Below are positions 24,691 to 55,660 of a stretch of 64,000 nt of DNA, piece by piece. This stretch comes from Actinomycetota bacterium (lineage in GTDB: Bacteria; Actinomycetota; Geothermincolia; Geothermincolales; RBG-13-55-18), in the NCBI GenBank assembly GCA_014360655.1, contig JACIXC010000001.1, positions 17,173 to 81,172 of the forward strand, read 5' to 3'. Both the position numbers and the translations under genes were made by a program. Each line of letters begins with the position of its first letter. Within the stretch, counting starts at the first letter, position 1. The notes under the pieces were generated by a model that was given only the letters and a program-made list of their open reading frames with translations, made no database searches and had not been told where the DNA came from.

Positions 24691-25536
24691 ATGAAGCTCG
24701 ATGGGAAAAGGGTGGTCATCACCGGCGCGGGGGCCGGCCTGGGAAGGGAGTTCGCCCTCGCGCTGGCCGCGAAGGGCTGCAGCATAGGGGTAACGGATAT
24801 AGAACTCGCGAGGGCGGAGGAGACCCTGCGCCTCGTGTTGGAAAGGGGCGGGAAGGGCGAGGCTCTGCGGGTGGACGTCACCGACCCATCCGCCGTGGAG
24901 GCCATGGCCGATCACTTCTTCGAAGCCTGGGGAGGGGTGGACCTCCTCGTCAACAACGCCGGCGTGGTGTCCGCGGGTTACGTGGGTGACATCCCCCTCG
25001 AGGACTGGCACTGGCAGTACGACGTTAACTTCTGGGGGGTCATCCACGGGTGTCATTTCTTCATCCCCAGGATGAAAAAGCAGGGTTTCGGCCATATCCT
25101 GAACGTCGCCTCATCCTTCGGCTTCCTAAGCTTTCTGGAGATAGCCCCCTACAACTCCACCAAGGCTGCCGTGATCTCAGTCTCGGAAACCCTCAGGACC
25201 GAGCTCGCCCCCTCGGGGATAGGCGTCACCGCCCTCTGCCCCATGTTCGTGCGCACCAGCCTCCTGGAGTCTCTGAGGTACACCGACGATTTCGAGAGCA
25301 ACCTGGCCCACACCGCCTTCGCGCATGCGCGCATGGGAGCCGACAGGGTGGCCGCGGCCGGCTTGAGGGCGGTGGAGAAGAACCGGCTCTACTGCGTGCC
25401 CCAGCTCTCCGGCCAGATCTTCTGGCACTTGAAGCGCTTCAACCCGGAGCTCTTCTACCGCACGCTGGCCTGGATAAACGGGCAAAAATGGGGCAGGGGC
25501 TTCATGCTGTGGATGGCCCGCAGGGGCTTCCTGTGA
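24691..25536 (+). CDS. Short-chain dehydrogenase/reductase (SDR)
   Basis: 281 aa. GKRVVITGAGAGLGRE cofactor motif, NNAG, S...YNSTKAA catalytic triad region. Confidence 0.85.
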   Translation: MKLDGKRVVITGAGAGLGREFALALAAKGCSIGVTDIELARAEETLRLVLERGGKGEALRVDVTDPSAVEAMADHFFEAWGGVDLLVNNAGVVSAGYVGDIPLEDWHWQYDVNFWGVIHGCHFFIPRMKKQGFGHILNVASSFGFLSFLEIAPYNSTKAAVISVSETLRTELAPSGIGVTALCPMFVRTSLLESLRYTDDFESNLAHTAFAHARMGADRVAAAGLRAVEKNRLYCVPQLSGQIFWHLKRFNPELFYRTLAWINGQKWGRGFMLWMARRGFL

Positions 25537-25635: not shown

Positions 25636-26871
25636 CTATTCCTCGCCCACTATGGCCTCCCCGGCTACCAGTGCCAGGAAGTCGTTGGAACCGTCCTCGA
25701 TGAGGCCCGCCCGGGCGTCCCGGAAGAGCTTCTCTATGGTCGACTCCTTGGAAAGCCCGAAGCCCCCCATGAGCTGCACCGCCTCGTTGGCCACCTCGAA
25801 GGCCGCCTGGGTACAGAAGACCTTGGAGGCGATGGAGTACTGGGTGAGAGGCGGGTTGGTGTTGAAGTTGAACTCCATGACCGCGCGCGAGAAGGCGCGG
25901 CACGCCTCCACCAGCTTGAACATGTGGAAGAGCTTGTAGCGGACCAGCTGGTGCTCTATGAGCCTCTTCCCTCCCTGCACCCTCTGCTTGCAGTAGGCGA
26001 GCGCTTCCTCGTAGCAGGCCCGCGCGACGCCGGTGAAGAAGGCGCCCATGCTGGCGTTGGCCGTGGACAGGGTGACATCCAGCATGGCTTCGTAGGAGTC
26101 CTGTTCGATGAGCATGTACTCCCTGGGCACCCTCACGTTGTCGAAGTATATCTCCCCCTGGTTGAGGGCCCGCTGTCCCAGCTTGTTCCAGGGTTTCCCG
26201 CGCGAGACGCCCGGCAGGTCGAGGGGGACGATGCATATTCCTCCCCCGGCCATGCCCATCTCGGGGTCGATGGTCAGGTAAACGGTGGCGTGGGTGGCGA
26301 TGGTCCCGCAGGACACCCATGCGGCCTTGGTGCCGTTGATCACCCACTCGTCCCCGTCCAGGACGGCGCGGCAGGCGGTGCGGGCGATGTCCGGGTTGCA
26401 GAACTGCTCCGTGAAGGGGGCCAGGGTATCCGAGCCGTGGTCGGGCTCCGTGATGGCCCAGCAGCCGATCATCTTGGCCTCCTCGTCCTCGCAGTAGGGG
26501 ACGATGATGTTCTCGATGAGGAACTCCGTGGGCACCAGGCTGGCCAGGAAGGCCGGAAAGCAGGCCACCCCGAAGGCGATCATGAAGTCGATGGAGCCCC
26601 AGGATATCTCCTCGAAGAGCATGTGTACCTCGAGGGGCGAGAAGCCGCCTCCGCCGTAGATCTCGGGTATGAGTATCTTGTGCAGGCCGATCTTGTAGCC
26701 CTTGCGGAACACATCCCAGAAAACGGATTCCTTGGCGATGACGTCCTCGGGATCCAGCTTGTCCAGCTCCAGGCTGGCCGGGCGCAGCACCTCGCTCGCG
26801 AAGGTGTGCACCATGTCGCGGTTCATCTTCTGCACCTTGGTGATGTTCAGGTTCAGGTCGGTGTACGGCAT
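25636..26871 (-). CDS. Acyl-CoA dehydrogenase
   Basis: 411 aa. ACAD N/M/C domains. C-terminal RDARAGLIEDGSN carries the catalytic Glu in the IxEG position. Confidence 0.85.
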   Translation of the reverse strand: MPYTDLNLNITKVQKMNRDMVHTFASEVLRPASLELDKLDPEDVIAKESVFWDVFRKGYKIGLHKILIPEIYGGGGFSPLEVHMLFEEISWGSIDFMIAFGVACFPAFLASLVPTEFLIENIIVPYCEDEEAKMIGCWAITEPDHGSDTLAPFTEQFCNPDIARTACRAVLDGDEWVINGTKAAWVSCGTIATHATVYLTIDPEMGMAGGGICIVPLDLPGVSRGKPWNKLGQRALNQGEIYFDNVRVPREYMLIEQDSYEAMLDVTLSTANASMGAFFTGVARACYEEALAYCKQRVQGGKRLIEHQLVRYKLFHMFKLVEACRAFSRAVMEFNFNTNPPLTQYSIASKVFCTQAAFEVANEAVQLMGGFGLSKESTIEKLFRDARAGLIEDGSNDFLALVAGEAIVGEE

Positions 26872-26916: not shown

Positions 26917-28527
26917 TCACAGGTAATCCTCGGCCCGGTAGACGTTTTCCGCCTGCGGCGAAAACTCCTCGCGCAGCACCCGGTCCAGGTACTTCTCCGA
27001 GGCGCTCTTGGGAATCTCTTCCACCACCTGCAGGTAACTCGGGACGGCGTTCTTCTCCAGGCCCTCGGCGGCCTTCCTGAACACGGAAGCGGGATCGATG
27101 GAGCGGCCCTCGAAGGGAGCCACCGCGGCGACCAGGTCGCTCTCCCCGGGAGCCCCGGAGGAGGCCGGTATGCCGTATACGCACACCTCGGACACGTCGG
27201 GGTGCTCCCCGATGACCTTCTCCACGTAGGAGGGGATGATGAACTCGCCCTGGCGCCGCAGCCCCCCTCCCTCCTTGCGGTAATCGAAGAAGAGCCAGCC
27301 TTCCTCGTCGCGGTGGACCATGTCGCCGGTGCGCAGCCAGCCCCCCCGCGTCTTCGCCGCAGAGTCCTCGGGTCTCCCGTGGTACTCCACCTCGGGCTTC
27401 TGAGTGACCGCCCGCATGAGCAGCTCACCGGTGACGAAGGGCGGCACCTCGTTGTCGTTCTCGTCCACGATCCTGTACTCCATGAGCCCTTCGATGGGCT
27501 TGCCGAAGGAGCCTACGGGGCCCTGGTCGATTGGCTTGTAGGCGAAGCCTCCCTCCACCGCCCCGTACCATTCCAGTATCTTCACGTTGAAGCGCTTCTC
27601 GAAGTCCTCCCAGATGGCCACGGGGGTGCCCGCGGAGATGACCACCTCCACGGGGTTGTCCGCGTCGTCCGGCCGCGGCGGCTCGTTGTAGATACCGGAC
27701 ATCATGCCCCCCAGGAGGGAAAAGGTGGTGCAACCGTAGCGCCGGCATATGTCCCAGATGCGGCTCTTGGTGAAGCGCTGGCTGATCACCGCCCGGATGC
27801 CCAGGGCCAGGGCGGACATCATGGTCACCGCCTGGGCATTGCCGTGGGTGAGGGAAAGGCCGGTGTAGAGGATGGAGTCCTCCGTGTATCCCCACACCAT
27901 CCTGGCGAGGGCGGTGTACATCAACGTGCGCGACGCCTTGATGACCACTCCCTTGGGGTTGCCGGTGACCCCCGAAGTGTAGATTATTTCCATGGGGAGG
28001 TTCGGGTCATCCACCCTGCCTTCAAGCTCGTAGATGTCCGGGCCGTCCACCAGCTCGTTCACGGTGGGATACTTCGTGGCCAAAGAAAGGTCGGCATCCG
28101 GTTTAAGGTTGAGCCAGATGCGCTCAATCCCCGGCAGGGTTCTCGCCTGCGCCTCCACCTCCGGCAACAGGTCGGCGGTGGTGATCACGGCCCTGGCCCT
28201 GCAGTCACCCAGCATGTAGGCGAGCTTCTCGCCCCGGGATCGAGGGTCTATGGGCACCGCCACGTAGCCGAGCAGGTTGGCGGCCGCCATGGCGTAGACC
28301 ATCTCAGGGTGGTTGCGCATGACCAGGGCCACGGCATCCCCCTTGCCTATGCCGCTCTCCCGCAGGCCCCTGGCCACCTTGAAGGTGTTGGCCACCAGCT
28401 GGCGGTAGGTCAGGGGCTCGTCACGGTAAAGCCCGCCGTTCTCGAAGACCAGCCCCACGAACTCGGGCTTCTCCTCCATGCGCATCTCCATCTGGTGAAA
28501 GATGAGCGCGGGGTTTTTCTCCTCCAT
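26917..28527 (-). CDS. AMP-dependent acyl-CoA synthetase (paralog A)
   Basis: 536 aa. YTSGVTGNPKGVV AMP-binding motif. About 75% aa identity to 31458-33197 with about 100-bp near-identical DNA blocks. Confidence 0.85.
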   Translation of the reverse strand: MEEKNPALIFHQMEMRMEEKPEFVGLVFENGGLYRDEPLTYRQLVANTFKVARGLRESGIGKGDAVALVMRNHPEMVYAMAAANLLGYVAVPIDPRSRGEKLAYMLGDCRARAVITTADLLPEVEAQARTLPGIERIWLNLKPDADLSLATKYPTVNELVDGPDIYELEGRVDDPNLPMEIIYTSGVTGNPKGVVIKASRTLMYTALARMVWGYTEDSILYTGLSLTHGNAQAVTMMSALALGIRAVISQRFTKSRIWDICRRYGCTTFSLLGGMMSGIYNEPPRPDDADNPVEVVISAGTPVAIWEDFEKRFNVKILEWYGAVEGGFAYKPIDQGPVGSFGKPIEGLMEYRIVDENDNEVPPFVTGELLMRAVTQKPEVEYHGRPEDSAAKTRGGWLRTGDMVHRDEEGWLFFDYRKEGGGLRRQGEFIIPSYVEKVIGEHPDVSEVCVYGIPASSGAPGESDLVAAVAPFEGRSIDPASVFRKAAEGLEKNAVPSYLQVVEEIPKSASEKYLDRVLREEFSPQAENVYRAEDYL

Positions 28528-28618: not shown

Positions 28619-29269
28619 TCACTCAACCGCACCCATGAAACGACGGGTGAAGGAGGGGAACTCCCTGGCGAATATCTCCGCCCATTCCTCCTCCGTCCAG
28701 TACTTGTGACGGTCGAAGAAGGGGTCCCGCGGCTGGTAACTGACCGCCACCCCGATGCAGAAGTCCACGTCCTCTATGAACTCGCAGGCGGGCGCGGCGG
28801 CGCCTATGGTCTGGAAGACGCGGCAGTGCAGCCCCAGGCGCCAGGCCATGGCCGCCGCGGCGTTTGCCGCCATGTGCACGTCGTAGACAACGAAGTGGCA
28901 GCACGGGCCGTTTATGATAGACTCTACTTCATCCGCCTTGTTCAGCTCCTCGCAGGTGCGAAAACCGCAGGCCCCGCAGTCGAAGTTGTAGACGGATTTT
29001 CTCCTCGCCCCTATCAGCAGCGCACGGGCATCCTCCTTGGCCAAGTCCAGAAAGCTCCTGCCGTCCCGGTTGAAGAGGGGCGAGACCTCCGCCACGCCTT
29101 CGCAATATCCCGACAAGTCCTCGAATTCCTCCGGTCCTATGGCCGCCATCCTGATCCTGGGATGCCCGAATTTCAGGGCCGTGGAAGCCGCAACCGCCAT
29201 GAGCTCCACCGCCCGGTCGAGACCACCGCCCAAGAGCTCCTCAGCTTTTTTGACCGCCATGGCACGCAC
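28619..29269 (-). CDS. Cys-rich protein, DUF2148/COG4739-like ferredoxin-domain protein (tentative)
   Basis: 216 aa. DCGACGFRTC and GPCCHF motifs. Paralog of the adjacent gene. Confidence 0.45.
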   Translation of the reverse strand: MRAMAVKKAEELLGGGLDRAVELMAVAASTALKFGHPRIRMAAIGPEEFEDLSGYCEGVAEVSPLFNRDGRSFLDLAKEDARALLIGARRKSVYNFDCGACGFRTCEELNKADEVESIINGPCCHFVVYDVHMAANAAAAMAWRLGLHCRVFQTIGAAAPACEFIEDVDFCIGVAVSYQPRDPFFDRHKYWTEEEWAEIFAREFPSFTRRFMGAVE

Positions 29270-29273
29270 CCCC

Positions 29274-29933
29274 TCAACAGTAGATGGAACGGAAGGTGGG
29301 AAAGAGCCGGTGGATAAGCCTGTTGGAAAGGGTCGCGTCGTTGAACTCGTCCCAGCGGCGCGGCAGGTCGCGGTAGGGGCTCTTCTCCGTCACCGAGGCG
29401 AGGAAGCCCAGGGCGATGCCGCACCCGTGCGGGACCAGCCCCGTGCGCACCGCGGCCGCCCCCACCGACATCTTCACGGCATGATCGATGCCCAACTGCC
29501 GGGCCAGCGAAACCGCCCCGTTGAGCGCATAGGCCATGTTCATGGAGCGCAGCAGGCAGAAGGGCCCGCGAAAGGCCACCGAGGGCTCATCCGGGAGACG
29601 TTCCGCATCCCGCCAGTTGTCGCACAGGATGTTGCCGCACAGGTTGCAGTTGGAATCCATTGGATCGTGCCCGGCGCGCCTGTCGGCCATGATGAGGACG
29701 ACATCGGAGTCGCGCACCTGGACGGCATCGGAGCGGAAGAAATCCCAGCGGGGGTTGTCCGCCGCCATGCGCTCGACGGCGATCGCCAGGTCCTCGATGG
29801 CGTCCCGGTCGTCGAGGGCCACCACGCAGATCTCGTCTATGCCCCCCACGCGGGGGGAGGTGACGGCGGAAGCGAGGAGGAGCTTGCAGGCTTCCCTGGC
29901 GCTTTCCGCCCGCCTTTCCTCGTATTCCCTCAT
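29274..29933 (-). CDS. Cys-rich protein, paralog of 28619-29269 (DUF2148-like, tentative)
   Basis: 219 aa from ATG 29933 (SD GGAAAGGA 5 nt upstream). NCNLCGNILC and GPFCLL motifs in positions equivalent to the neighbour. Confidence 0.45.
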   Translation of the reverse strand: MREYEERRAESAREACKLLLASAVTSPRVGGIDEICVVALDDRDAIEDLAIAVERMAADNPRWDFFRSDAVQVRDSDVVLIMADRRAGHDPMDSNCNLCGNILCDNWRDAERLPDEPSVAFRGPFCLLRSMNMAYALNGAVSLARQLGIDHAVKMSVGAAAVRTGLVPHGCGIALGFLASVTEKSPYRDLPRRWDEFNDATLSNRLIHRLFPTFRSIYC

Positions 29934-30051
29934 TATCCTTTCCACGGAACATCCCTCCCTTGCAAGAATGCGCCTATACGAGCGGGAAAAACACGTCACG
30001 GAAAAAAGCGGCCCGGCCGTGACCGCGAGCGGCGGCGGCCGCGTGCGCCCG

Positions 30052-30453
30052 TCAGGTGGGCAGCCCCTTTTCCTCGCAGATCTTGGGATAGGCCTCGTAG
30101 GCTGGCTTGAGCAAGGGGAGCATGCCGAGGATCTTGCTCATGGGACCCTTGGCCTTCACCTTGCGCTTGGCCAAGGCCACGGGCAGCTTGAGCTTCTGCA
30201 GCCAGAAGTTGTGGCAGTCATCTCCGGCAAGCCACATGACCACGTCCGGCTCCGCCTCCGTCTCCCCCAGGGAGAGGGATGGCTTCTCGTCGCCGTGCAG
30301 CAGCCAGATCTCCCCGTCCGGATCGTTGATCACGAACTGCACGTTGATGTTCTCCTCGTTGAATTTCCTCGACACCGTCTCGTCCTCGAGCAGCTTGGTG
30401 AAAAGCTCGCCCAGGACCTCGTACATGTGAGCGGTATCCTTGAAGACAGCCAT
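30052..30453 (-). CDS. SCP2 sterol-carrier-like lipid-binding protein
   Basis: 133 aa from ATG 30453 (MAVFKDTAHMYEVLGELFTKL...). SCP2 fold sequence pattern. The maximal ORF N-terminus was discarded. Confidence 0.7.
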   Translation of the reverse strand: MAVFKDTAHMYEVLGELFTKLLEDETVSRKFNEENINVQFVINDPDGEIWLLHGDEKPSLSLGETEAEPDVVMWLAGDDCHNFWLQKLKLPVALAKRKVKAKGPMSKILGMLPLLKPAYEAYPKICEEKGLPT

Positions 30454-30629
30454 CGCGCACACCCCTTTCCCTCTCCTGCTAAACCGGTTGCCGGACATGC
30501 CGATACATACCAGAGTATGATACCATGGTATGTGATTGTCAAGGTCGCGCCGGAAAGCCCGGAGCGGCACAGGGAACAAAGGCGGCTGCCGTGCCGAAGG
30601 AGCCGCAAGCGTGACCGACGAGGTGCATC

Positions 30630-31301
30630 GTGCCCGAAAAGGCTCGCCTTTCGCGGAGGGAAAGAGGCTTGGCGACGAAGAAGGAGCTCTTCGAAGCCGC
30701 CATCTCGCTCTTCGCCAGGAAGGGCTACGACAAGGTCACCGTGGACGAGATCTGCGAGAAGGTGGGGGTGACCAAGGGCGCCTTCTACCACCACTACCGC
30801 TCCAAGGACCAGATCATCCTGGAGGAGTTCAAGCAGATGGACGAGCACTACGCGCGCGTGGCCGAGGAGATCTCCTCCCTCCCCGGCACCGTGGAAAAGC
30901 TCCGGGCCTTCAACCGCGCGGCCATCACCCTCATGGCGGAGCTGGGGGTGACCCTGATGAAGGTCCTCTACCACTCCCAGATCGCCCCCCACATGAGGAA
31001 ACCCTACCTCGCCGACGGCCGCCGCTCTCTCTACCGCATCACCGGCGAGCTCATCAGGGAGGGGCAGGAAAGGGGCGAGATCCGCGACGACCTGCCGAGC
31101 GAGGAACTGGCGGCGATGCTCATCGACTGTTTCCGCGGGCAGATCTACCACTGGTGCCTTTGCAACGGCGCCTTCGATCTCGTGGGCACCTGCGAGAGGC
31201 TCATGGACCTTCTCGTCGACAGCCTGAAGCCCCCGCAAAGCGCGCGCCAGCGCGGCGATTCCGGCAAGCTCCCCGGGCGGCGCCCTTCCCGACCCGCGTG
31301 A
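30630..31301 (+). CDS. TetR/AcrR-family transcriptional regulator
   Basis: 223 aa. N-terminal HTH RKGYDKVTVDEICEKVGVTKGAFYHHYRSKDQI. Confidence 0.85.
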   Translation: MPEKARLSRRERGLATKKELFEAAISLFARKGYDKVTVDEICEKVGVTKGAFYHHYRSKDQIILEEFKQMDEHYARVAEEISSLPGTVEKLRAFNRAAITLMAELGVTLMKVLYHSQIAPHMRKPYLADGRRSLYRITGELIREGQERGEIRDDLPSEELAAMLIDCFRGQIYHWCLCNGAFDLVGTCERLMDLLVDSLKPPQSARQRGDSGKLPGRRPSRPA

Positions 31302-31457: not shown

Positions 31458-33197
31458 TCAGGCGTAATCCTCCAGGCGGTAGACGTTTTCCGCGTCGGGA
31501 CGGAAAGCCTCGCGCAGGAGGCGGTCCAGGTGCTTCTCCGAGGGGCTCTTGGGAATATCTTCCACAACCTGCAGGTAACTGGGCACGGAGTTACGCTCCA
31601 GGCCGGCCAGGGCCGCCTTGAAGACGGAATCCGGGTCTATACTGCGGCCTTCGAAGGGGACCACCGCCGCCACCAGGTCACTCTCGCCCGGTGCGCCAGA
31701 GGCCGCCGGGATGCCGTAGACGCACACCTCTGAGACGTCGGGGTGTTCCCCGATGACCTTCTCCACCAGGTCGGGCTTGATGAAGTCGCCGGCCCGCCGC
31801 AGCGCTCCTCCCTTGCGGTAGTCGAAGAAGAACCACCCCTCCTCGTCACGGTGCACCATGTCCCCGGAGCGCAGCCAGCCGCCCCGCATCTTCTCCGCCG
31901 AGGCCTCCGGTTTCTTGTAGTAATCCACCTTGCTCTGCGTGAGCATGCGGCAGATGAGCTCGCCGGTCACGCCGGGAGGCACTTCGTTGTCCTCCTCGTC
32001 CACCACTTTCATCTCCACCAGCCCGGGAAGGGGCTTTCCGAAGGACCCTATTGGGCCCTTGCCGATGGGCCGGTAGGCGAAACCGCCCTCGATGGCCGCG
32101 TACCACTCGAGGATCTGGACGCCGAAGCGCCGCTCGAAATCCTCCCATATGGCCCGCGGGGTTCCCGCCGATACCACCATGCGTACCGGGTTGTCGGCGT
32201 CGTCCGGGCGCGGCGGCTCGTTGTAGATCCCGGACATCATGCCCCCCAGGAGGGAGAAGGTGGTGCATCCGTAGCGGCGGCACACATCCCATATGCGGCT
32301 CTTGGTGAAGCGCTGGCCTATCACCGCCGGGATGCCCATGGCCAGCGACGGGAAGAGGGTGACCGCCTGGGCGTTCCCGTGCGCCAGGGAAAGCCCGGTG
32401 TAGGGGATGTCGTCCTCCCGGTAGCCCCAGACTATGTACCCGAGCAGGCAGTACATGGCGTTGCGGCGCGAGTCCAGTGTGACCCCCTTGGGGTTGCCCG
32501 TCACCCCGGAGGTGTAGATGATCTGCACCGGGGCGGAGGGGTCACCGGCCGCCCCCTCCGGCTCCCGCGGCGGGTTCCCCTCCAGCATCTCGTTGAGCGT
32601 GGGGTAACGCGAGGCGAGGGAGGGGTCGGCATCCGGCTTCAGGTTCAGGTAGATCTTCGGCGAGGCCGAGACGCTCCTCGCCGCCGCCTCCACCTCCGGC
32701 AGGAGGTCAGCGGTGGTGACCACGGCCCTGGCGTCGGAGTCCGCCAGCTGGTAGGCGAGCTTCTCTCCCCTGGCGCGGGGGTCGATGGGCACCAGCACCG
32801 TGCCCAGCAGGCTGCAGGCGGCCAGCGCGTAGACGAACTCGGGGTGGTTGCGCATGACCAGGGCCAGTTTGTCCCCCTTCTCGAACCCCTCGCGCCGCAG
32901 CCCCTCCGCCAGACGCAGGGACCGGGAGTAGAGCTGCGCGTAGGTCAGCCTCTCGTCCTCGTAGAGACCTCCGTTCTCGAAGATGAGCCCGGTGCGGTTG
33001 GGGCTCTCCTCGGCGCGTTGCGCGAGGAGCCCGGAAAGCAGCCCCCTGTGCCGGGGCAGCCTGGTTTCCGCCACCCCGCGCACGGCGCGGGAGACCAGGT
33101 CGACGTGGGCCAGGAACTTGAGCGCCATGTATAGCCTGGGATTTTTTTCCTCCAGCTTTTTCAGGGCCGGCTTATCGAAGATCTTATCCAGATCCAT
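31458..33197 (-). CDS. AMP-dependent acyl-CoA synthetase (paralog B)
   Basis: 579 aa. YTSGVTGNPKGVT motif. Shares long identical peptide runs with paralog A (IYNEPPRPDDADNPV, KVIGEHPDVSEVCVYGIPA.SGAPGESDLVAAV). Confidence 0.85.
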   Translation of the reverse strand: MDLDKIFDKPALKKLEEKNPRLYMALKFLAHVDLVSRAVRGVAETRLPRHRGLLSGLLAQRAEESPNRTGLIFENGGLYEDERLTYAQLYSRSLRLAEGLRREGFEKGDKLALVMRNHPEFVYALAACSLLGTVLVPIDPRARGEKLAYQLADSDARAVVTTADLLPEVEAAARSVSASPKIYLNLKPDADPSLASRYPTLNEMLEGNPPREPEGAAGDPSAPVQIIYTSGVTGNPKGVTLDSRRNAMYCLLGYIVWGYREDDIPYTGLSLAHGNAQAVTLFPSLAMGIPAVIGQRFTKSRIWDVCRRYGCTTFSLLGGMMSGIYNEPPRPDDADNPVRMVVSAGTPRAIWEDFERRFGVQILEWYAAIEGGFAYRPIGKGPIGSFGKPLPGLVEMKVVDEEDNEVPPGVTGELICRMLTQSKVDYYKKPEASAEKMRGGWLRSGDMVHRDEEGWFFFDYRKGGALRRAGDFIKPDLVEKVIGEHPDVSEVCVYGIPAASGAPGESDLVAAVVPFEGRSIDPDSVFKAALAGLERNSVPSYLQVVEDIPKSPSEKHLDRLLREAFRPDAENVYRLEDYA

Positions 33198-33242: not shown

Positions 33243-34238
33243 TCAGGGCATCTCCTGCCAGGTCTTTCCCCCCTTGCGCCAGATGATGCGGGGCAGCTCG
33301 CGCTTGACCATGGTGTCGGCGTTCACCCGCGGGTAGCCCATGACCAGGGCCGTCACCGGGACGTAGGGCCACTTTATCCCCAGGTACCGCTTCACCCAGG
33401 GGAGCATCTTGGCTCCCACGGCCGCGAAGCTTAGGTAACAGGTGACCAGGCCCAGGGAGTGCGCGGCCAGTACCATGTTCTGGCCGCAGATCCCGATATC
33501 GACGTACATGTTGTTGATGCCCCGCTTGTCCCCCAGCAGATACACCAGGCAGGGAGCCCCCAGGAAGACGTCACGGGGCTTGAGGATGGCCTTCCCCCCC
33601 GTCATGGCCCTCTGGTCCATCAGGGGCGGGACGACGGCCGAGGAAAGGGCGAGGGCCCCCCTCAGGAGGACGTTGCGCTTCCCGGCGAAGTAGAAGGCGG
33701 TCAGGAAGCGGTAAAAGGGGTCCATCATGTCCGCGATCCTGTCCATCTCCTCGCGGTCGTTGACGATGATGAAGCTCCAGGGCTGGCAGTTGCCGTGGGA
33801 GGGCGCGAAGCGCCCCGCCTCCACAACGCGTCGCACTAACTCGTCGGGCACCGGTTTGCTGGAGAATATGCGGTTGCTGCGGCGCTTGTAGATGACCTCC
33901 TCCACAGGGGTCAGCCCCTGGATGCCCTCCACCTCCGGCACGCGGGGATAGCCGTCGTCGGGATGGAGGTGCAGAGTCCGGAAGAGGCCCTCCTCCACGT
34001 TGTAGAAGCCGCGCATGGAAACGGCGTCCTTCTCGCAGTGGGACACGCATGCCGAGCAGGACATGCAGACGACTCCCTCGATCATCCTCGCCTTTCCGCC
34101 CACCACCTCCAGGCAGGCGCACGGGCAGGCCTGCACGCAGTTTCCGCATCCCGTGCACCTCTCCTCGTCCACGACAATGGTGGAGTTGGACCAGGCTTCC
34201 GGATGGGCCGGCAGGTAAGTCTTGCTGAATTTTCCCAT
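33243..34238 (-). CDS. 4Fe-4S ferredoxin-nitroreductase fusion protein
   Basis: 331 aa. N-terminal CTGCGNCVQACP / CMSCSACVSHC ferredoxin motifs. C-terminal nitroreductase-family fold (RRSNRIFS..., HGNCQPWSFIIV). Confidence 0.75.
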   Translation of the reverse strand: MGKFSKTYLPAHPEAWSNSTIVVDEERCTGCGNCVQACPCACLEVVGGKARMIEGVVCMSCSACVSHCEKDAVSMRGFYNVEEGLFRTLHLHPDDGYPRVPEVEGIQGLTPVEEVIYKRRSNRIFSSKPVPDELVRRVVEAGRFAPSHGNCQPWSFIIVNDREEMDRIADMMDPFYRFLTAFYFAGKRNVLLRGALALSSAVVPPLMDQRAMTGGKAILKPRDVFLGAPCLVYLLGDKRGINNMYVDIGICGQNMVLAAHSLGLVTCYLSFAAVGAKMLPWVKRYLGIKWPYVPVTALVMGYPRVNADTMVKRELPRIIWRKGGKTWQEMP

Positions 34239-34283: not shown

Positions 34284-35306
34284 TCAGCTTTCGACCCTCT
34301 CTTGCTTTTTCTCCACGTCGCCTTCCCCGCGCACCTCGACGGTCATCAGTATCTCCCCGCATGCCCCCAGGGGAAGGCCCGCGCCGTAACAGTTCATGGG
34401 AAGGTCGAAGAGCGCGCCGCGGAAATCCTCCTCGCCGTCGACCGCGGCGGCCATGCGGTCGAGGACCAGCATCACCCGCCACCAGATCTTGGCAAGGGCC
34501 ATGATGCAGGCGCCCTCCCCCTTGCCGCTCGCTAGGACCCTTCCCAGGGCATCCAGGTGGAATTCGTCGCCCTCCCCGTGGCCGGCCGGGCAGGCGTGCG
34601 CGGAGACCACCTTGACCACGATGCGGCGGTCCTTGTACTTTTCCGCGGCAAGCAGGCGCCGCACGCGCTTCGGTGATGCCAGGAAGGCCGCGAGCTCCTC
34701 CTCCCCGAGGGGCAATCCCCTCATGAACGCGTCCGGCTCGGGTCCCCCGGAAAGCGGCGCCTCCCTCACCGCCCGGCACTCCCCCCGCGCCCTGCGGTTC
34801 CTAACGAGAAGGTAGGGGGCCATGGTGAGCAGGAAGTACAGGATCTCCGGCAGGGGCATCTTCTCCCGCCGTATCCTGAAGAGGTTGTTCCCCAGGCCTC
34901 CCATCTCCAGGCCGGTATCCGTGCAGGTCACGTGGTCGAAGAGCATGCCGTTGGGGTCCTTCCCCCGCAGCATGTAGTCGTAGTAGGCGTAGATGACCGG
35001 GGAGAGCTGGGAAAGTCCGTGTATGCAGATGCCGGGCGGGCACCTGTGCCTGATGAGCATGCCCATGGGGTTGAAATAGAGCGGCCGCCCCTCGTTGTGG
35101 CATCCCGAGCAGTGGTTGGAGCACACCGGCTCCGCCACCAGCCAGTAGGTCATGGCCTCAACGTTCAGCGCCTCCAGCAGCCCCAGCCGCGACGCCTGTG
35201 CGAATTCCTCCTCCGTGTAGCCCCAGCGGTTCATGATGACCCTCTTGAGGACGGGCCTGGAGGCCCAGTTGAGAAAACCCCACACGCCTCGCATCGGCTT
35301 GTCCAT
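34284..35306 (-). CDS. Hypothetical Cys/His-rich protein (two putative metal-binding clusters)
   Basis: 341 aa from ATG 35306. CSNHCSGCH ... HRCPPGICIHG cluster and C-terminal HACPAGHGEGDEFH ... NCYGAGLPLGACGE cluster. The upstream 250 codons of the maximal ORF overlap the thiolase gene and are rejected. Confidence 0.5.
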   Translation of the reverse strand: MDKPMRGVWGFLNWASRPVLKRVIMNRWGYTEEEFAQASRLGLLEALNVEAMTYWLVAEPVCSNHCSGCHNEGRPLYFNPMGMLIRHRCPPGICIHGLSQLSPVIYAYYDYMLRGKDPNGMLFDHVTCTDTGLEMGGLGNNLFRIRREKMPLPEILYFLLTMAPYLLVRNRRARGECRAVREAPLSGGPEPDAFMRGLPLGEEELAAFLASPKRVRRLLAAEKYKDRRIVVKVVSAHACPAGHGEGDEFHLDALGRVLASGKGEGACIMALAKIWWRVMLVLDRMAAAVDGEEDFRGALFDLPMNCYGAGLPLGACGEILMTVEVRGEGDVEKKQERVES

Positions 35307-35524
35307 CCCATCACCCCCATCCTTGACCGCCCGCATCGGCGATGCGCGCACGCACCCGATAATCCGGCCCGTAACAAGCAATCCATGCCCCGCAAGCCCA
35401 CCCCGGGGCATCCCCCGCCCGTGCCCATGTGCTCGCTCAGCCCAGCCCGGAGAGACCCTCGCCTCGCCCAAGCCGGAAGCACGCGGCCCGCGCGCGGGCC
35501 GGGGAGCGGTCCCCCCGCAGCCCC

Positions 35525-36787
35525 TCAGGTCGCGACCTTTTCCAGTATATGGATGCACATGGCCGCTTCCCCGGTGCCGATGAAGCCGCCCCCGTTCTCG
35601 GAAAGGGCGATGCGAGCGCCCTCCACCTGGCGCCTTCCCGCCTCGCCGCGCAGCTGGGTCACCAGCTCGTGGATCTGGGCGATGCCGGATGCCCCTATGG
35701 GGTGTCCCCTGCACTCGAGGCCGCCGCTCGTGTTCACCGGAAGCTTTCCCCCCAGCCTGGTGGCGCCGGACTCCGCGAAGGGCCCTCCTTCCCCTTCCCC
35801 GCAGAAACCGAGCTCCTCCGTCTGCAGCAGTTCCCCGAAGGCGGTGGCGTCGTGCACCTCGGCCACGTCGACGTCCCCGGGGCCTACCCCGGCCACCTCG
35901 TAGGCCTTGGCGCTCAGCCTCTTCCCTATGAGGTCCATCTCCCCTCCCTCCGGCAGGGTCCCCGAGGTGAGCACGGAGGCCAGTATCTTCACCGGCCGGG
36001 CGCCGGGATAACGACGCAGTGCCCGCCCGGAGCAGAGAAGGGCGGCGGAGGCCCCGTCCCCCATGGGAGCGCACATGGCCCGCGTGAGCGGGTAGGCCAC
36101 CGGCCTGTCCGCGAGCACCTCTTCCACGCTCATGTCCACCTGGTACTGTGCCAGGGGGTTCAGCGAGGCATGGTAATGGTTCTTGGCGGCGATCACCGCG
36201 AGCTGGCGTTGTGTTGTGCCATATTTTTCCATATGCATGCGGGCGGCCATGGCGTAGATGTCCATGAAGGGCGAGCGCCCTCCCCCGCCTCCCCCGGACT
36301 TGGCCTCCCCCTTGGCCGACGCCTCCTCAGCCTTCCTGCGCTCGTCCGCCTGGAAGGCCTCGATGATGGCCCGTATGAATTCCACGTCCGCGTTGGACAT
36401 GAACATCTCGAACATGGCCTGCTTGTTCTCCGGGTTGTACATCTTCTCCACCCCCAGGGCCAGGGCCACGTCGTACTGGCCGGCCTTTATGCCCAGGTAA
36501 GCGCCGTGCAGGGCGCTGGTGGCCCCCGCGCAGGCGTTCTCCACGTTCATCACCGGTATCCCCTGGATGCCCAGCGGGGTAAGGGCCACCTGTCCCCGGA
36601 TGCTGTGCTGCCCCGTCACGATCCCCCAGAAGGAATTGGAGAACCAGGCGGCCTCGATCTCCTCCCTGCGCACCGGACAATCCCGCAAAAGGGCCTCCAG
36701 GACCTCGGCGGTCATCTGCTTGATGCTCTTTTCGGGGTACTTCCCGAAGCGGATCATTCCCACGCCGATGATGTAAACCTCATCCAT
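35525..36787 (-). CDS. SCPx-type (nonspecific lipid-transfer protein) thiolase
   Basis: 420 aa from ATG 36787 (SD AAGGAGG). N-terminal active-site Cys region (NACAGA), C-terminal GHPIGASG thiolase signature. Confidence 0.85.
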   Translation of the reverse strand: MDEVYIIGVGMIRFGKYPEKSIKQMTAEVLEALLRDCPVRREEIEAAWFSNSFWGIVTGQHSIRGQVALTPLGIQGIPVMNVENACAGATSALHGAYLGIKAGQYDVALALGVEKMYNPENKQAMFEMFMSNADVEFIRAIIEAFQADERRKAEEASAKGEAKSGGGGGGRSPFMDIYAMAARMHMEKYGTTQRQLAVIAAKNHYHASLNPLAQYQVDMSVEEVLADRPVAYPLTRAMCAPMGDGASAALLCSGRALRRYPGARPVKILASVLTSGTLPEGGEMDLIGKRLSAKAYEVAGVGPGDVDVAEVHDATAFGELLQTEELGFCGEGEGGPFAESGATRLGGKLPVNTSGGLECRGHPIGASGIAQIHELVTQLRGEAGRRQVEGARIALSENGGGFIGTGEAAMCIHILEKVAT

Positions 36788-36990
36788 CCCTGCCTCCTTG
36801 CAAAACCACGACACTTACCACGTCACCACCGCACCGGGCATCGGGGGCGGACAAGATCATGTTAAGCGCAACGGGGCGCGCGTCTCAAGGGCAAGGGCCA
36901 AGGGCAAGGGCCTCCCGGACCTCGGCGGCATGCCGTTTCTCACCCGCGACGCGCCGCTCTCGCCGAGCCATTTGCGCCTTCCCCTTCCCG

Positions 36991-38043
36991 TCAACCTTCG
37001 GAGAGGGCGAGCATGCGCAACAGTACCTCCTGCGGGGTGCGGGGGTACACCTGGCAGTACTTGGCATCGCGCATCAGGCGCTCCATGCCGTAATCGCGCA
37101 TGTACCCGTAACCCCCGTGTACCTGCACCCCGTCGGTGGCGGCCTGGAAGGCCCCCTGCGTGGCGCGAAGCCAAGCGGTCATGGCGGGGATCATCTCCCG
37201 GCTCTCGCAGGCGCGACGCACCAGCGTCCTGCCCTCCTCCACCACGGCCACCATCCCCGCCAGGAGGAGGCGTATCCCCTGGTGCTGGATGATCGTCTTT
37301 CCCGCCTGGTACCTCTCGCAGGCATAGGCGTGGGCCTTGTCCAGCGCCTTGCGCGCGATGCCCACCCCGATGGAGGCCAGGCCCACGTGGAGCAGCCTCT
37401 CCACGGCTTCCACCATACCCGCGCCCGTGACGGCATTGGCCGGGGATACGCCCTCGAGGCGCAAGGCCCCCGGACGCGCGGGCCGCAGCCCCAGCGGATA
37501 GGCCTCCGGCGTCACCCGCAAGCCTTCCGCCTCCCTGCCCAGGGCGAGGGCCGTGTCGTGGCCCTCCCCCCGCACCAGAACGACTATGGCCCCTTCCGCG
37601 GCGGCGTTCAGGGCGAAGGGCACGCTTCCGTTCACCCTGTCTCCCGCCATGGAGACCTCCCCGGGAAAGGCCAGGCACGCGGGGAAGGATGCGCCGCCGA
37701 TCCCGGTGATGAGCCCCTGCAGCTCGCCCAGCGCCGTCGGGTAAAGGGCGGCGTTATGGGCAAGGAGCGAGGCCGCCAGGCCGGCGCACTCCACGGCGAT
37801 CTCCTCCAGCGCCACGCAGAAGGCGTACTCGTCAAGCCCCCCTCCCCCCGCGTCCTCGGGGAGCAGCGCCGCGAAAAGGCCCAGGTCCCCGGCGCGGAGA
37901 AAGGCCTCGCGCACCCGCGGGGAGCCGGGTTCGAGGTCCGCCTCTTCCGCCAGGGGTGCCAGTTCCTTTGCCGCGTAGGAGGCGGCGGTCTCGCGCAGGA
38001 TCCCGTACTCCTGCTTCTCTTCCATGCCGGCAAGCCTCACCAT
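36991..38043 (-). CDS. Acyl-CoA dehydrogenase-like subunit lacking the canonical catalytic Glu (putative non-catalytic partner)
   Basis: 350 aa. ACAD fold throughout, but the catalytic-base region reads RDAKYCQVYPRTPQEV instead of RDARI..IYEGT. Start codon is 1 nt after the stop of the upstream ACAD. Confidence 0.65.
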   Translation of the reverse strand: MVRLAGMEEKQEYGILRETAASYAAKELAPLAEEADLEPGSPRVREAFLRAGDLGLFAALLPEDAGGGGLDEYAFCVALEEIAVECAGLAASLLAHNAALYPTALGELQGLITGIGGASFPACLAFPGEVSMAGDRVNGSVPFALNAAAEGAIVVLVRGEGHDTALALGREAEGLRVTPEAYPLGLRPARPGALRLEGVSPANAVTGAGMVEAVERLLHVGLASIGVGIARKALDKAHAYACERYQAGKTIIQHQGIRLLLAGMVAVVEEGRTLVRRACESREMIPAMTAWLRATQGAFQAATDGVQVHGGYGYMRDYGMERLMRDAKYCQVYPRTPQEVLLRMLALSEG

Positions 38044-38044
38044 A

Positions 38045-39520
38045 TCACCTCACCCCCTTCTTGAAGGGGCGCGGCACTTCCACCTTCAGCGACCCCTCCA
38101 CTTCCGTGTTGAAGACCACCAGGCGGTTGAGCTGGTTGGTCCCCTCGTAGATCTGGGTCAGCTTCGCGTCGCGCAGGGACTTTTCCACCCAGCGGCGGTG
38201 CGGGGTATCGTCCAGCCCCATGACCTCCAGCGCCCGCGAGATGATCTCCATGGCGTTGTCCGCGCAGCGGAACTTGGCCAGGGAAGCCTTGGCCAGGAGG
38301 TCCGTGACCTCCTCGTCCCCTATGAAATGGCGGAATAGGGTGTTCACAACCCCCTTGCCGTAATAGGAGTTGTAGAAGGCCGCCATGGGCTTCGCGGTGC
38401 GCAGGGCGCGCGGCATGCTGAAGGCCGCCTGGAAGACGGGATGGGTGAAGGCGCTGCGGAAGACGGCATCCCCCAGCAGGGCGTGGTTGAGGTACAGGCC
38501 CCGGTTCTCCTGGATCATGGCCAGCATGTCCGCCAGGGTCATGCGCACGCGGTCCTCGTCCGCGGGACGTTTGCCGTTACGCCTTTCCAGCGCCCAGGCC
38601 CGGAAGTGCTCGAAGGCCCCCCGGGCGATGCCCGTGGCTATGGCCCCCACGGGACCACGCGAGGAGGCCATGATGATGAGAATGCCGTTGGCCATGCCGT
38701 CGCCGGGATAGCCGAGCACGTGGGAATCGGGGACGAAAACGTCCTCGAAGAGCAACTCCGCCGCGTGGCAGGCGCGCTGTCCCATCTTCAGCTCCACGCG
38801 AGGTGTGGAAAATCCTTCCATGCCCCTCTCCACCAGGAAGGTGGTCCATGTTTCAAGGGGCCGGCTGCGGTCGATCGCCGCGCACACCGTTATGTACTTG
38901 GCCTCGCTGCCGCCGGATATGAAGCACTTGCGGCCGTTGAGGATGTAGCCTCCTTTCACCCTCCTGGCCTCCAGGCTGAGGCGGGCCACCTCCAGGAACT
39001 CCGGTTCCTCCACGTCGGTTCCCGCCGAAGGCTCGGTGATGGCATAGGCCATGACCACCGGGTTGCCCTTCTTCTCCTCCTCCGCTATCTCGTGCAGGAC
39101 GGTGTCCCAGTGGGCCAGGGCCCCGGAGGCGATCACCGGGGAGACCCCCAGGCTGTGGGCCCCTATGGCCAGCCCGATACCCCCGCAGCAGGAGCACAGC
39201 TCCTCCACCACCAGGGACATGCCGGAAACCAGGTACTCCTTGGCCAGCCCTCCCACCACCTCGGGGATGATCAGGGAGAAGAAACGGTACTTGCAGGCCT
39301 CCCGCATCATCTCCCAGTCGAAGTACTCCGGCTCGCGCTCCATGCGCTCGTCCAGGGCGAGGGCCCTCGGCTCCGCCACCGCGCGGTTATATTCCACGGC
39401 CCTCTCCACCAGCTCGATCAGCCAGTCGATCCCCTTGCGGTCATGCTCGCGCAGGGCGGCCAGGACGGGGAAATCGGTCAGCACCCTCTTTCCCACTTCG
39501 CTCACTCCGCGTCCTCTCAT
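38045..39520 (-). CDS. Acyl-CoA dehydrogenase (catalytic subunit)
   Basis: 491 aa from ATG 39520 (SD GGAGAGGGGGG). C-terminal LTQIYEGTNQLNRLVV carries the catalytic Glu. Confidence 0.8.
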   Translation of the reverse strand: MRGRGVSEVGKRVLTDFPVLAALREHDRKGIDWLIELVERAVEYNRAVAEPRALALDERMEREPEYFDWEMMREACKYRFFSLIIPEVVGGLAKEYLVSGMSLVVEELCSCCGGIGLAIGAHSLGVSPVIASGALAHWDTVLHEIAEEEKKGNPVVMAYAITEPSAGTDVEEPEFLEVARLSLEARRVKGGYILNGRKCFISGGSEAKYITVCAAIDRSRPLETWTTFLVERGMEGFSTPRVELKMGQRACHAAELLFEDVFVPDSHVLGYPGDGMANGILIIMASSRGPVGAIATGIARGAFEHFRAWALERRNGKRPADEDRVRMTLADMLAMIQENRGLYLNHALLGDAVFRSAFTHPVFQAAFSMPRALRTAKPMAAFYNSYYGKGVVNTLFRHFIGDEEVTDLLAKASLAKFRCADNAMEIISRALEVMGLDDTPHRRWVEKSLRDAKLTQIYEGTNQLNRLVVFNTEVEGSLKVEVPRPFKKGVR

Positions 39521-49784: not shown

Positions 49785-49842
49785 CCCCCGAGATGCCGCG
49801 GGCCGCCGCCCGTCATGTCATTCTTCCCATATATTTCCATGT

Positions 49843-55500: not shown

Positions 55501-55660
55501 GGGCTTTCACTCCTTCCTCGCCTCTTCTTCCTCGCCGCTCGCCGGCTTTGCCTCATGCCTGAGTATACCCCATCTGCGCACCTTCCACGGAAGGGTTGAC
55601 CCCCCGCGCCCTGGGGACTATCTTAAGGGCATGGTTATGTTAAGTGGAGATTAATACATC

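Follow-up and report, generated by a model that had tools for sequence, protein, structure and literature searches.

What do two tandem cysteine-rich proteins do in an operon of the β-oxidation type? The pair, here named DUF2148-A and DUF2148-B (A and B), lies in a stretch of 64,000 nucleotides from an Actinomycetota bacterium, subsequently called the window. The original prediction, made from the letters alone, had suggested a heterodimeric Fe-S component that acts on a CoA thioester, either as a reductase or as a dehydratase accessory. Carbon turnover in sediments, aquifers, digesters and oil reservoirs is driven by the degradation of fatty, branched and polycyclic carboxylic acids without oxygen, a process in which analogy to aerobic pathways is the sole basis for assigning many steps. 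Literature searches yielded no paper on DUF2148, COG4739 or PF09918, none on the combination of nitroreductase superfamily, 4Fe-4S and acyl-CoA, and only unrelated papers for SCP2, thiolase, acyl-CoA dehydrogenase and anaerobic. With a probability of about three in four we conclude that A and B are an Fe-S enzyme pair of nitroreductase fold working on CoA thioesters.

The gene pair and its operon

The two neighboring reading frames of ∼215 aa that had been described as homologous are real and share the minus strand (Table 1). The frame of B covers positions 28619-29269; the ATG at 29260 is its most likely start, because the resulting 213 aa match the closest homologs (P0001 and P0002) in length, and an SD sequence (GAGGGGG) is located upstream, overlapping the stop codon of A. 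The frame of A covers 29274-29999, with a likely start at the GTG at 29945, because all homologs begin with MER or MEK; AAGGGAGGG precedes this codon, which lies 12 nt upstream of the end coordinate first given (29933). Both proteins exceed the gathering score of Pfam family PF09918 (DUF2148; 25 bits), B with 64.3 bits (E = 1e-17) and A with 56.6 bits (E = 2.5e-15), which bears out the proposed likeness to DUF2148/COG4739. A and B are paralogs with 25% identity across ∼200 residues (E = 2e-10). Their nearest relatives are found in MAGs of Actinomycetota (Geothermincolia-type), in agreement with the anaerobic and actinobacterial origin that had been assumed. The DUF2148 family comprises 551 representatives at 50% identity. 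None of the NCBIfam models covers A, B or the SCP2-like protein, and a search of all PDB chains with A, B and a B-type profile gave nothing meaningful and no solved structure of the family.

Table 1. Features of the DUF2148 locus (positions refer to the window)
Feature	Position	Strand	Remarks
SDR	24691..25536	plus	convergent with ACAD; Pfam adh_short, E 3e-47
Acyl-CoA dehydrogenase-family flavoprotein (ACAD)	25636..26871	minus	last gene of the local operon; three ACAD Pfam domains
Acyl-CoA synthetase ACS1	26917..28527	minus	directly downstream of B; Pfam AMP-binding
DUF2148-B	28619..29260	minus	213 aa; 216 aa from the alternative start GTG at 29269
DUF2148-A	29274..29945	minus	223 aa; nitroreductase-fold subunit (predicted model) with Cys4 loop C100, C103, C108, C130
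SCP2-like lipid-binding protein	30052..30453	minus	133 aa; first cassette gene; invariant SGDxCHxFW motif
Double palindrome ATACCAGAGTAT-G-ATACCATGGTAT	30507..30531	.	divergent TetR/SCP2 intergenic region
Putative TetR operator, pattern form			ATACCNNGGTAT-N-ATACCNNGGTAT
TetR-family regulator	30630..31301	plus	divergent; Pfam TetR_N, E 3e-17
Acyl-CoA synthetase ACS2	31458..33197	minus	ACS1 paralog; Pfam AMP-binding; kept in Actinomycetota loci
Ferredoxin-nitroreductase fusion	33243..34238	minus	2x[4Fe-4S] Fer4 domain and classical nitroreductase domain, E 1e-30
SCP2-type (type-1) thiolase	35525..36814	minus	nucleophilic Cys motif NACAG; Pfam Thiolase_C_1/Thiolase_N

Pfam searches located the two acyl-CoA synthetases, the SCP2 protein and the TetR regulator in the neighborhood where they had been reported. 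The SCP2-like protein scores 25.2 bits against Pfam SCP2 (cutoff 21.3) and its profile finds Yarrowia SCP2 (4jgx) as best PDB match (E = 0.007); together with a GK(I/L)K(V/A)KG segment of the SCP2 type, these matches led us to reject a hot-dog hydratase for this 133-aa protein. The nearest solved homologs of ACS1 are FATP2/very-long-chain ACS (1e-39) and FadD5. Among NCBIfam models, the acryloyl-CoA reductase AcrC ranks first for the ACAD, though with a score far under the cutoff, and the best PDB matches of the thiolase are the SCP2-thiolase type-1 6hsj and BbsB. An OleABCD-like biosynthetic cluster was rejected, as the ligase resembles FadD/FATP and the thiolase is of the SCP2 type, with NACAG as its nucleophile motif. 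The window also holds a MaoC hydratase, 26 kb from the pair.

The double palindrome between the divergent TetR and SCP2 genes overlaps promoter-like hexamers, occupies the same position in Actinomycetota loci and had no match in any of 100 shuffles. Judged from these letters and their location, it is probably the operator of the TetR regulator.

Conserved cysteines and predicted fold

The motifs CxxCGx3C and GP(C/F)C are as first described: B carries C98-x2-C101-G-x3-C106 and G121-P-C-C124 (216-aa numbering), A carries C100-x2-C103-G-x3-C108 and G127-P-F-C130. These four cysteines are kept in all homologs aligned, namely 41 B-type, 39 A-type and 60 canonical DUF2148 sequences. Their spacing (CxxCx4Cx17-21C) differs from that of Fer4-type proteins (CxxCxxCxxxCP). 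PF04060, the RnfB/CFeSP-type [4Fe-4S] family, weakly matches B (E = 0.004) and passes its cutoff with some relatives. Each subunit would hold a single [4Fe-4S] cluster, ligated by cysteines alone and placed on a loop that follows the second strand as an insertion.

The predicted monomer structures of A and B adopt the nitroreductase α+β fold with the four cysteines on an inserted loop, and they match only the FMN nitroreductase/NADH oxidase superfamily (for example 3pxv, 3e39, iodotyrosine deiodinase 5ko7 and CLA-ER 4qlx). The ferredoxin domain suggested earlier is therefore ruled out as the fold of either protein; a Pfam scan of A and B also gave no match to any Fer4 family. The likeness to the superfamily is one of fold and not of sequence: A and B have no match to PF00881 (nitroreductase) at E ≤ 0.01, and an hhalign comparison of canonical DUF2148 with SagB-type nitroreductases was not significant (probability 0.9%). 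No flavin-binding signature is evident in the A/B alignments, where the RRSxR-type N-terminal segment that contacts the FMN phosphate has no counterpart. A and B further differ from the superfamily in the Cys4 loop, in conserved C-terminal tails (pLDDT <50 in the monomer predictions) and in being a putative heterodimer of 25%-identical paralogs encoded in CoA-thioester operons. Pfam matches to ECH or MaoC, to ETF and to HgdA/B-type subunits are likewise missing, and the nitroreductase-like fold also sets A and B apart from crotonase and hot-dog hydratases.

Canonical DUF2148/COG4739 members belong to the same Pfam family and have the same four cysteines, but are encoded by single genes of 175-190 aa in varied contexts: some stand alone, others adjoin ChrB (chromate resistance), a SagB-type nitroreductase or a 3-hydroxyacyl-CoA dehydrogenase. 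A and B are longer (213-223 aa), always in tandem and extended by the C-terminal tails. Each paralog retains a part of the canonical polar motifs TAPK, RDA, DNR, GK and FDR. A shares TxP(K/R)xGG (as TSPR), D, GK/EK and FxD motifs, with DA, D154, E-K188 and D193, whereas B keeps RDG, R150 and FDRH, lacks TAPK and D145 and replaces D-N-R with H-C-R, a motif that contains an additional invariant cysteine (C149). Many Arg, Lys and Asp residues besides the Cys ligands are invariant in both. Together with these different subsets, they suggest that A and B have a site for binding a cofactor or substrate and are more than simple carriers.

A cassette shared by at least five phyla

The neighborhood, whose conservation had been proposed as a check, is kept across Actinomycetota and beyond. 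We found a colinear cassette in the order SCP2-A-B-acyl-CoA synthetase-acyl-CoA dehydrogenase-(SCP2-type thiolase-SDR) in 87 loci, from MAGs of Actinomycetota, Desulfobacterota, Chloroflexota, Spirochaetota and Bacillota. Gene counts over the 73 long loci gave SCP2 in 72/73, ACAD in 71/73, ACS after B in 70/73, thiolase in 59/73 and SDR in 48/73. The thiolase gene of the window lies 6 kb upstream of the pair, whereas in most other loci it follows the ACAD; the SDR of the window shares ∼30% identity (tblastn) with the SDR encoded in the cassettes of other phyla, so orthology is uncertain. Wherever a locus spans both positions, the genes of A and B are direct neighbors, with a gap of ∼10-20 nt (median ∼10 nt). 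This constant adjacency, the overlap of the B SD sequence with the A stop codon and the C-terminal tails support the heterodimer of the original prediction. The constancy of the pair in an acyl-CoA operon shared by at least five phyla probably marks an unrecognised step on CoA-bound lipids.

Hydratases are rare near the cassette, with crotonase in 2/87 and MaoC in 1-2/87 loci, all more than 7 kb away, and no ETF cluster was found in its neighborhood. An HgdC-type activator-like gene (BcrAD_BadFG) occurs in 1/87 cassette loci and in 1/81 loci of the second subfamily described below; with a single locus per set, a general dependence on such an activator was rejected. In 38 loci the cassette is bordered by a TetR gene. 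The ferredoxin-nitroreductase fusion gene is present in 7 loci of the cassette set (set 1), linked in Actinomycetota loci only; its product is a possible electron partner of A/B.

A second paired subfamily

A second, deeply diverged subfamily of paired DUF2148 proteins also adjoins CoA ligases. It comprises 81 loci, 40 of them long. PaaK-like ligases are found in 19 and ACS in 11 of the long loci, which amounts to 30/40 if the counts do not overlap. The ligase is the most constant neighbor in the two diverged subfamilies, and this supports an Fe-S component acting on a CoA thioester. Other neighbors are thiolase/DUF35, acyl-CoA dehydrogenases (11/40), OYE-type reductases (FadH-like, 11/40), a crotonase beside the pair (8/40), and ETF or GlcDEF-like genes, with ETF genes accompanying the pair in 7-8 long loci. 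In one locus (L157) the pair is joined by EtfA, EtfB and a CCG Fe-S oxidoreductase, with no hydratase; in another (L088) it occurs together with a ligase and an NAD(P)H module, with no ACAD. A metagenome scan with the B-like protein of L088 gave no match for the single sequence, while the alignment-based scan gave matches.

One member (P0250) is a fusion of an A-like domain with Fer4_20 and Pyr_redox_2, a GltD-like NAD(P)H-FAD-FeS module; downstream of its gene lie a B-like gene and an ACS 36% identical to ACS1. It stands as one example from the 150 representatives listed, of which ten of the longest were scanned for domains.

Possible reactions

The reaction itself can be proposed only tentatively. 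Among the candidates we favor, at odds well below even, an ene-reductase that acts on the acyl-CoA supplied by the adjacent ligase. Known enzymes offer a functional parallel: FadH (2,4-dienoyl-CoA reductase of E. coli) and BaiCD/BaiH are OYE-type Fe-S flavoproteins that act on CoA thioesters. They resemble the proposed Fe-S-wired ene-reductase in working on CoA lipids in a ligase/SDR context, but differ in fold (TIM barrel plus Rossmann), in a proven flavin and in having their own NAD(P)H domain. The pair also recalls HgdAB (2-hydroxyacyl-CoA dehydratase) and BcrBC (benzoyl-CoA reductase), heterodimers of paralogous subunits with one [4Fe-4S] cluster each that act on CoA thioesters in anaerobes, as A/B may do; however, A and B lack the HGD-D fold and Pfam match and have four Cys ligands instead of the three of HgdAB clusters. 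UbiT-UbiU-UbiV, which carry out O2-independent ubiquinone hydroxylation, likewise combine an SCP2-type carrier, a paralogous [4Fe-4S] heterodimer, a hydrophobic substrate and anaerobiosis, but UbiU and UbiV belong to the peptidase U32 family with an unrelated fold, and their substrate is a polyprenyl phenol and not a CoA ester.

A point against the ene-reductase is that the cassette already has an ACAD for C=C chemistry and is short of a hydratase only, so that a replacement of enoyl-CoA hydratase would fit the gene content equally well. A/B, maybe with the SCP2-like protein, would then convert the ACAD product to (3R)-hydroxyacyl-CoA for the MFE-2-like SDR, with Fe-S clusters that are structural or support a radical-assisted hydration. 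The cassette supplies every β-oxidation function except hydration, and even the additional redox genes of L157 come without a hydratase. Its partner genes have the peroxisomal branched/very-long-chain set (FATP2/VLCS, MFE-2, SCPx/SCP2) as nearest solved homologs, and both systems include an SCP2 carrier; the cassette differs by lacking hydratase 2, by the DUF2148 pair, by an ACAD in place of an oxidase and by its anaerobic bacterial hosts. Fe-S (de)hydratases of CoA esters are known, namely 2-hydroxyacyl-CoA and 4-hydroxybutyryl-CoA dehydratases. Yet β-hydration of enoyl-CoA is cofactor-free, all four Cys ligands are invariant, so that A/B have no open iron site, and to our knowledge the nitroreductase fold has no hydratase member. 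Fusions and contexts of the family are those of redox proteins, and hydratases do occur, as a crotonase beside second-subfamily pairs and as the distant MaoC of the window. We regard hydratase replacement as rather unlikely. Unlikely, too, is the wider form of this idea, in which the pair would found a class of its own: an Fe-S protein on a nitroreductase scaffold that acts as a cofactor-dependent enoyl-CoA hydratase or a water-dependent hydroxylase. It would take the place of crotonase/MaoC in an anaerobic, peroxisome-like β-oxidation of lipids that are bulky or branched, and the SCP2-like protein would serve it as a third subunit that presents the substrate. For the dehydratase accessory of the original prediction the missing hydratase is a contextual point in favor; fold, fusions and family neighborhoods point to redox chemistry instead.

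A dedicated electron shuttle that exchanges electrons with the adjacent ACAD, either in place of ETF or as a link from ETF to ferredoxin, would explain why ACAD so regularly accompanies the pair in the long cassette loci with no ETF cluster found nearby. The ETF-dependent AcrC as top model of the ACAD and the suitability of all-Cys clusters for electron transfer agree with it, and an ACS-ACAD-EtfAB layout is known from the caffeate (Car), acryloyl-CoA (Acr) and crotonobetaine (Cai/Fix) systems. We consider it quite improbable: the co-occurrence of ETF genes with second-subfamily pairs means that pair and ETF are not exclusive, ACAD is far less frequent than ligase there (11/40 versus ∼30/40) and absent from L088 despite its pair, ligase and NAD(P)H module, and the large number of invariant polar residues besides the Cys ligands points to a binding site. 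Reductive dehalogenases, QueG and CblC are nitroreductase-fold variants that use a corrinoid and are served by Fe-S clusters, and A/B might by analogy use a non-flavin cofactor such as a corrinoid to strip a halogen, hydroxyl or methyl group from a CoA-bound substrate; this we judge highly improbable.

For the ene-reductase reading, A and B would pair into a heterodimer with the architecture of a nitroreductase dimer, the redox-catalytic part of a mobile acyl-CoA degradation cassette. The TetR repressor would leave its double-palindrome operator when lipid or acyl-CoA is present, the SCP2-like protein would hold the hydrophobic acid, and the adjacent FATP2/FadD-like ligase would form the CoA thioester. 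At a composite site in the interface, A/B would reduce or desaturate a C=C bond of this thioester in ene-reductase-type chemistry, as in CLA-ER, FadH or BaiCD, perhaps with a flavin; the missing flavin-binding signature and the missing sequence match to nitroreductases speak against this reading. The clusters would pass single electrons between this site and ferredoxin, flavodoxin, ETF or another external carrier, a part that the GltD-like NAD(P)H module may play in the one fused relative. ACAD, a hydratase, the MFE-2-like SDR and the SCP2-type thiolase would then shorten the chain.

A seven-gene cassette in at least five phyla of anaerobes keeps this uncharacterised, putative Fe-S pair where a known enzyme is missing, and a second, diverged family of pairs shows the same attachment to CoA ligases. 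Working out the reaction would provide a function for a whole DUF family, add an Fe-S-bearing branch to the nitroreductase superfamily and possibly reveal a new O2-free hydration or reduction of CoA-bound lipids. It would also improve pathway calls in genomes of Smithella, Syntrophaceae, Desulfomonilia, Dehalococcoidia and Geothermincolia.

Two diverged DUF2148 paralogs

Genes A and B form a head-to-tail couple on the minus strand, with A upstream. The 38/38 aligned homologs of A have their MER/MEK start at the position of GTG 29945 and AAGGGAGGG precedes this codon, so that A most likely comprises 223 aa. The closest homologs of B are 213 aa long; ahead of its ATG 29260 lies GAGGGGG, whose overlap with the TGA stop of A suggests translational coupling of the two genes. 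The original prediction of two adjacent, homologous DUF2148-like proteins was confirmed: both exceed the cutoff of 25 bits for Pfam PF09918 (DUF2148; 64.3 bits for B, 56.6 bits for A) and share 25% identity over about 200 residues (E 2e-10). The predicted Cys motifs were exact in both, with C98-x2-C101-G-x3-C106 and G-P-C-C124 in B and C100-x2-C103-G-x3-C108 and G-P-F-C130 in A, and all four Cys proved invariant in 41 B-type and 39 A-type sequences as well as in 60 canonical (single-gene) DUF2148 members. The label of a ferredoxin domain had to be dropped, as no Fer4-type ferredoxin model matches A or B. The sole Fe-S model responding was PF04060, a [4Fe-4S] motif (CxxCx4Cx16C) known from RnfB and from the corrinoid Fe-S protein; its match was weak in B (E 0.004) and above cutoff in several relatives.

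The kinship of DUF2148 to nitroreductases, seen in predicted models, is at the level of the fold only. No solved structure was detectable for A or B in PDB searches with single sequences or profiles, and hhalign comparison of canonical DUF2148 with SagB-type nitroreductases was not significant. In the secondary-structure order of the models the Cys loop follows the second strand and precedes the long central helix, a region that in nitroreductases is variable and lies over the active site. Neither A nor B shows a visible equivalent of the N-terminal RRSxR segment for the FMN phosphate. The C-terminal tails are strongly conserved (RLWPQFRSIYS in A, EFPTFxRGFIGAVE in B) and unplaced in the monomer models (pLDDT <50), as expected if each were wrapped around the other subunit, the way it is in nitroreductase dimers. 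Of the polar motifs that never vary among canonical members, A has kept one subset and B another, which would fit a heterodimer with two interface sites that are no longer equivalent.

The operon and its surroundings

In the window the order of the operon is SCP2, A, B, acyl-CoA synthetase (ACS1) and acyl-CoA dehydrogenase (ACAD). A second ACS and the displaced thiolase enclose two genes, one for a fusion of ferredoxin and nitroreductase and one for a Cys-rich TIGR04076-like protein; only Actinomycetota loci keep them together with the cassette, and their products may pass electrons to or from the pair. The intergenic region from which TetR and SCP2 diverge contains the double palindrome ATACCAGAGTAT-G-ATACCATGGTAT, which overlaps -35/-10-like promoter hexamers on both strands. 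It is kept at the equivalent site in related Actinomycetota loci, several of which have a second site, and probably serves TetR as operator in a small regulon. In the SCP2-like protein S-G-D-x-C-H-x-F-W (D77, C79, H80) is invariant across 31 homologs (alignment A4); this motif is unusual for a passive lipid carrier and may point to catalysis, metal binding or an interaction with A/B.

The 106-nt gap between SCP2 and A contains a terminator-like GC hairpin with a T-run; the count of such hairpins in the surrounding region was not above chance. The window is also rich in ACADs, among them an IpdE2-like short form and a longer one beside the thiolase, which look like the alpha/beta pairs used for bulky substrates. 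Two DUF362 proteins belong to another uncharacterised Fe-S family.

Features of the window around the A/B pair
Feature	Position	Strand	Remark
SCP2	30052-30453	minus	operon
A	29274-29945	minus	ORF 29274-29999
B	28619-29260	minus	ORF 28619-29269
ACS1	26917-28527	minus	operon
ACAD	25636-26871	minus	operon
Thiolase	35525-36814		displaced from operon
Second ACS	31458-33197
Ferredoxin-nitroreductase fusion	33243-34238		2x[4Fe-4S] ferredoxin and classical nitroreductase domains
TIGR04076-like	34284-35366		start tentative; adjoins fusion
Double palindrome	30507-30531		putative TetR operator
Terminator-like hairpin	30008-30026	minus
IpdE2-like ACAD and adjoining ACAD	36991-39763		350 aa and 572 aa
Two further tandem ACADs	48486-51147
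MaoC hydratase divergent from ACAD	55072-56833		26 kb from pair
DUF362 proteins	6149-7243; 17465-18784		one with C-terminal 2x[4Fe-4S] domain

A hydratase-less cassette in five phyla

The best matches were found in Geothermincolia-type Actinomycetota MAGs (Solincola, Geothermincola, Anoxymicrobiaceae; identity 77% to 95%). We mapped the window's proteins onto 87 loci, 80 kept of 281 from a one-genome-per-species scan and seven obtained by exact protein look-up. The genes for SCP2-like protein, A, B, ACS, ACAD, SCP2-type thiolase and SDR are colinear in essentially all of them, and the hosts belong to Actinomycetota and four further phyla: Desulfobacterota (Smithella, Syntrophaceae, Desulfomonilia, Desulfobacterales), Chloroflexota/Dehalococcoidia, Spirochaetota/Leptospiraceae and Bacillota/Syntrophomonadaceae. 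Every host genome is a MAG recovered from an anoxic habitat. Of the loci, 73 reach at least 9 kb; in these, SCP2 is present in 72, ACAD in 71, ACS in 70, thiolase in 59, SDR in 48 and a 3-beta-HSD/epimerase-like gene in 29. The cassette has a TetR gene at its flank in 38/87 loci. A crotonase HMM matched in only 2/87 loci and the window's MaoC, used as query, in 1-2/87, each >7 kb from the pair. Chloroflexota loci have two further genes at the flanks of the cassette, one of the acetoacetate-decarboxylase family (L004:15761-16561), reminiscent of how CLA-DC and CLA-ER are arranged for the saturation of fatty acids, and one for an AMACR-like CoA-transferase of family III (L004:7319-8485); such flanking genes were seen in few loci.

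The closest solved homologs of the partners are parts of a peroxisomal-type beta-oxidation system: FATP2/very-long-chain ACS for ACS1 (1e-39), SCP2-thiolase type-1 and BbsB for the thiolase, the (3R)-hydroxyacyl-CoA dehydrogenase domain of MFE-2 for the SDR of cassette L002 (8e-28), Yarrowia SCP2 for the small SCP2-like protein, and short- and branched-chain ACADs for the ACAD. Compared with that system, the cassette lacks one part, the hydratase, and has one added, the DUF2148 pair.

The wider family and a second paired subfamily

When 1.84 billion representative proteins were scored, the A + B profile yielded no more than 551 members at E<=1e-3. Full-length A is reduced to about one representative among them, as is B, while most of the remainder are single proteins with a length of 175-190 aa. 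In P0250 (747 aa) a representative was found that carries an A-like DUF2148 domain fused to Fer4_20 and Pyr_redox_2, by its domains a GltD/NfnB-type NAD(P)H-FAD-2x[4Fe-4S] module. Its locus (L088:1197-6557), with the order BcrAD_BadFG fragment, P0250, B-like DUF2148 (279 aa) and an ACS 36% identical to ACS1, resembles a pared-down form of the system, complete in itself.

A second, deeply diverged subfamily, with members of about 265 and about 290 aa, is always tandem; its 80 metagenome loci (L093-L172) were analysed jointly with L088 (81 in total). It occurs in at least four operon types (e.g. L157, L106, L150, L099): ACAD-SCP2-pair-thiolase-PaaK-like ligase-SDR; GlcDEF-like-pair-SCP2-ligase-DUF35-thiolase; pair-OYE/FadH-like-EtfA-EtfB, downstream of MMPL/DUF1302/BNR uptake genes; and, in L157, ACS-pair-ACAD-thiolase-EtfA-CCG-EtfB-SDR, a locus without hydratase. 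Among 40 long loci a ligase was found in about 30 (PaaK-like 19 and ACS 11, if non-overlapping), thiolase in 20, ACAD in 11, crotonase in 8 and ETF in 7-8; AFOR is also among the neighbours. Canonical members occur in varied contexts and some stand alone. On an archaeal-type contig (L092:1240-2435) the gene for a SagB/ThcOx-type nitroreductase precedes one of them by 18 nt; in another lineage (L173:1284-2803) one overlaps the end of the gene for the chromate-resistance regulator ChrB, with an MFS transporter next in order; and one adjoins a 3-hydroxyacyl-CoA dehydrogenase gene.

Proposed function

A redox enzyme is indicated by four features: the fold, the predicted all-Cys clusters, the fusion to an NAD(P)H module and the reductase-like settings in which canonical members lie. 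Apart from the Cys ligands, Arg, Lys and Asp residues are also invariant, which speaks for a binding site and against a mere carrier. In both paired subfamilies no neighbour is as constant as a CoA ligase, which in L088 is also the sole catalytic one; this argues that the substrate is the CoA thioester made by this ligase. We therefore favour a heterodimeric oxidoreductase on acyl-CoA. That A/B is an Fe-S enzyme pair of nitroreductase fold working on CoA thioesters is likely (probability of about 0.75); that it acts on a C=C bond of a hydrophobic acyl-CoA, by reduction or desaturation, is a tentative proposal at clearly less than even odds. The Fe-S-wired heterodimer would be auxiliary to the ACAD-SDR-thiolase cycle, a role like that of FadH and BaiCD/BaiH in other systems.

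The strongest rival, replacement of the hydratase by the pair, draws on a striking gene context, a cassette without this enzyme, sharpened by L157. We consider it unlikely, as beta-hydration has no chemical need for a cofactor, the four Cys ligands are invariant, a redox fusion is known in the family, and crotonase sits beside the pair in some second-subfamily loci. An ETF-like shuttle for the ACAD would agree with the cassette but is quite improbable: true EtfAB genes co-occur with the pair, and some pair loci are without ACAD. Low-Z matches to PceA/CblC and the CFeSP-type Cys motif would allow a corrinoid-type reductive enzyme, which we regard as very improbable.

A full-text literature search returned no paper mentioning DUF2148, COG4739 or PF09918, and NCBIfam contains no model for A or B. 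As far as our searches go, three points are new: the assignment of DUF2148 to the nitroreductase fold, with a putative Fe-S loop set into it; two diverged paralogs that occur only as a pair; and the fixed place of this pair in a widely shared hydratase-less acyl-CoA cassette. By its putative function the pair would belong among the oxidoreductases of the nitroreductase superfamily, with a modest chance of something more unusual.
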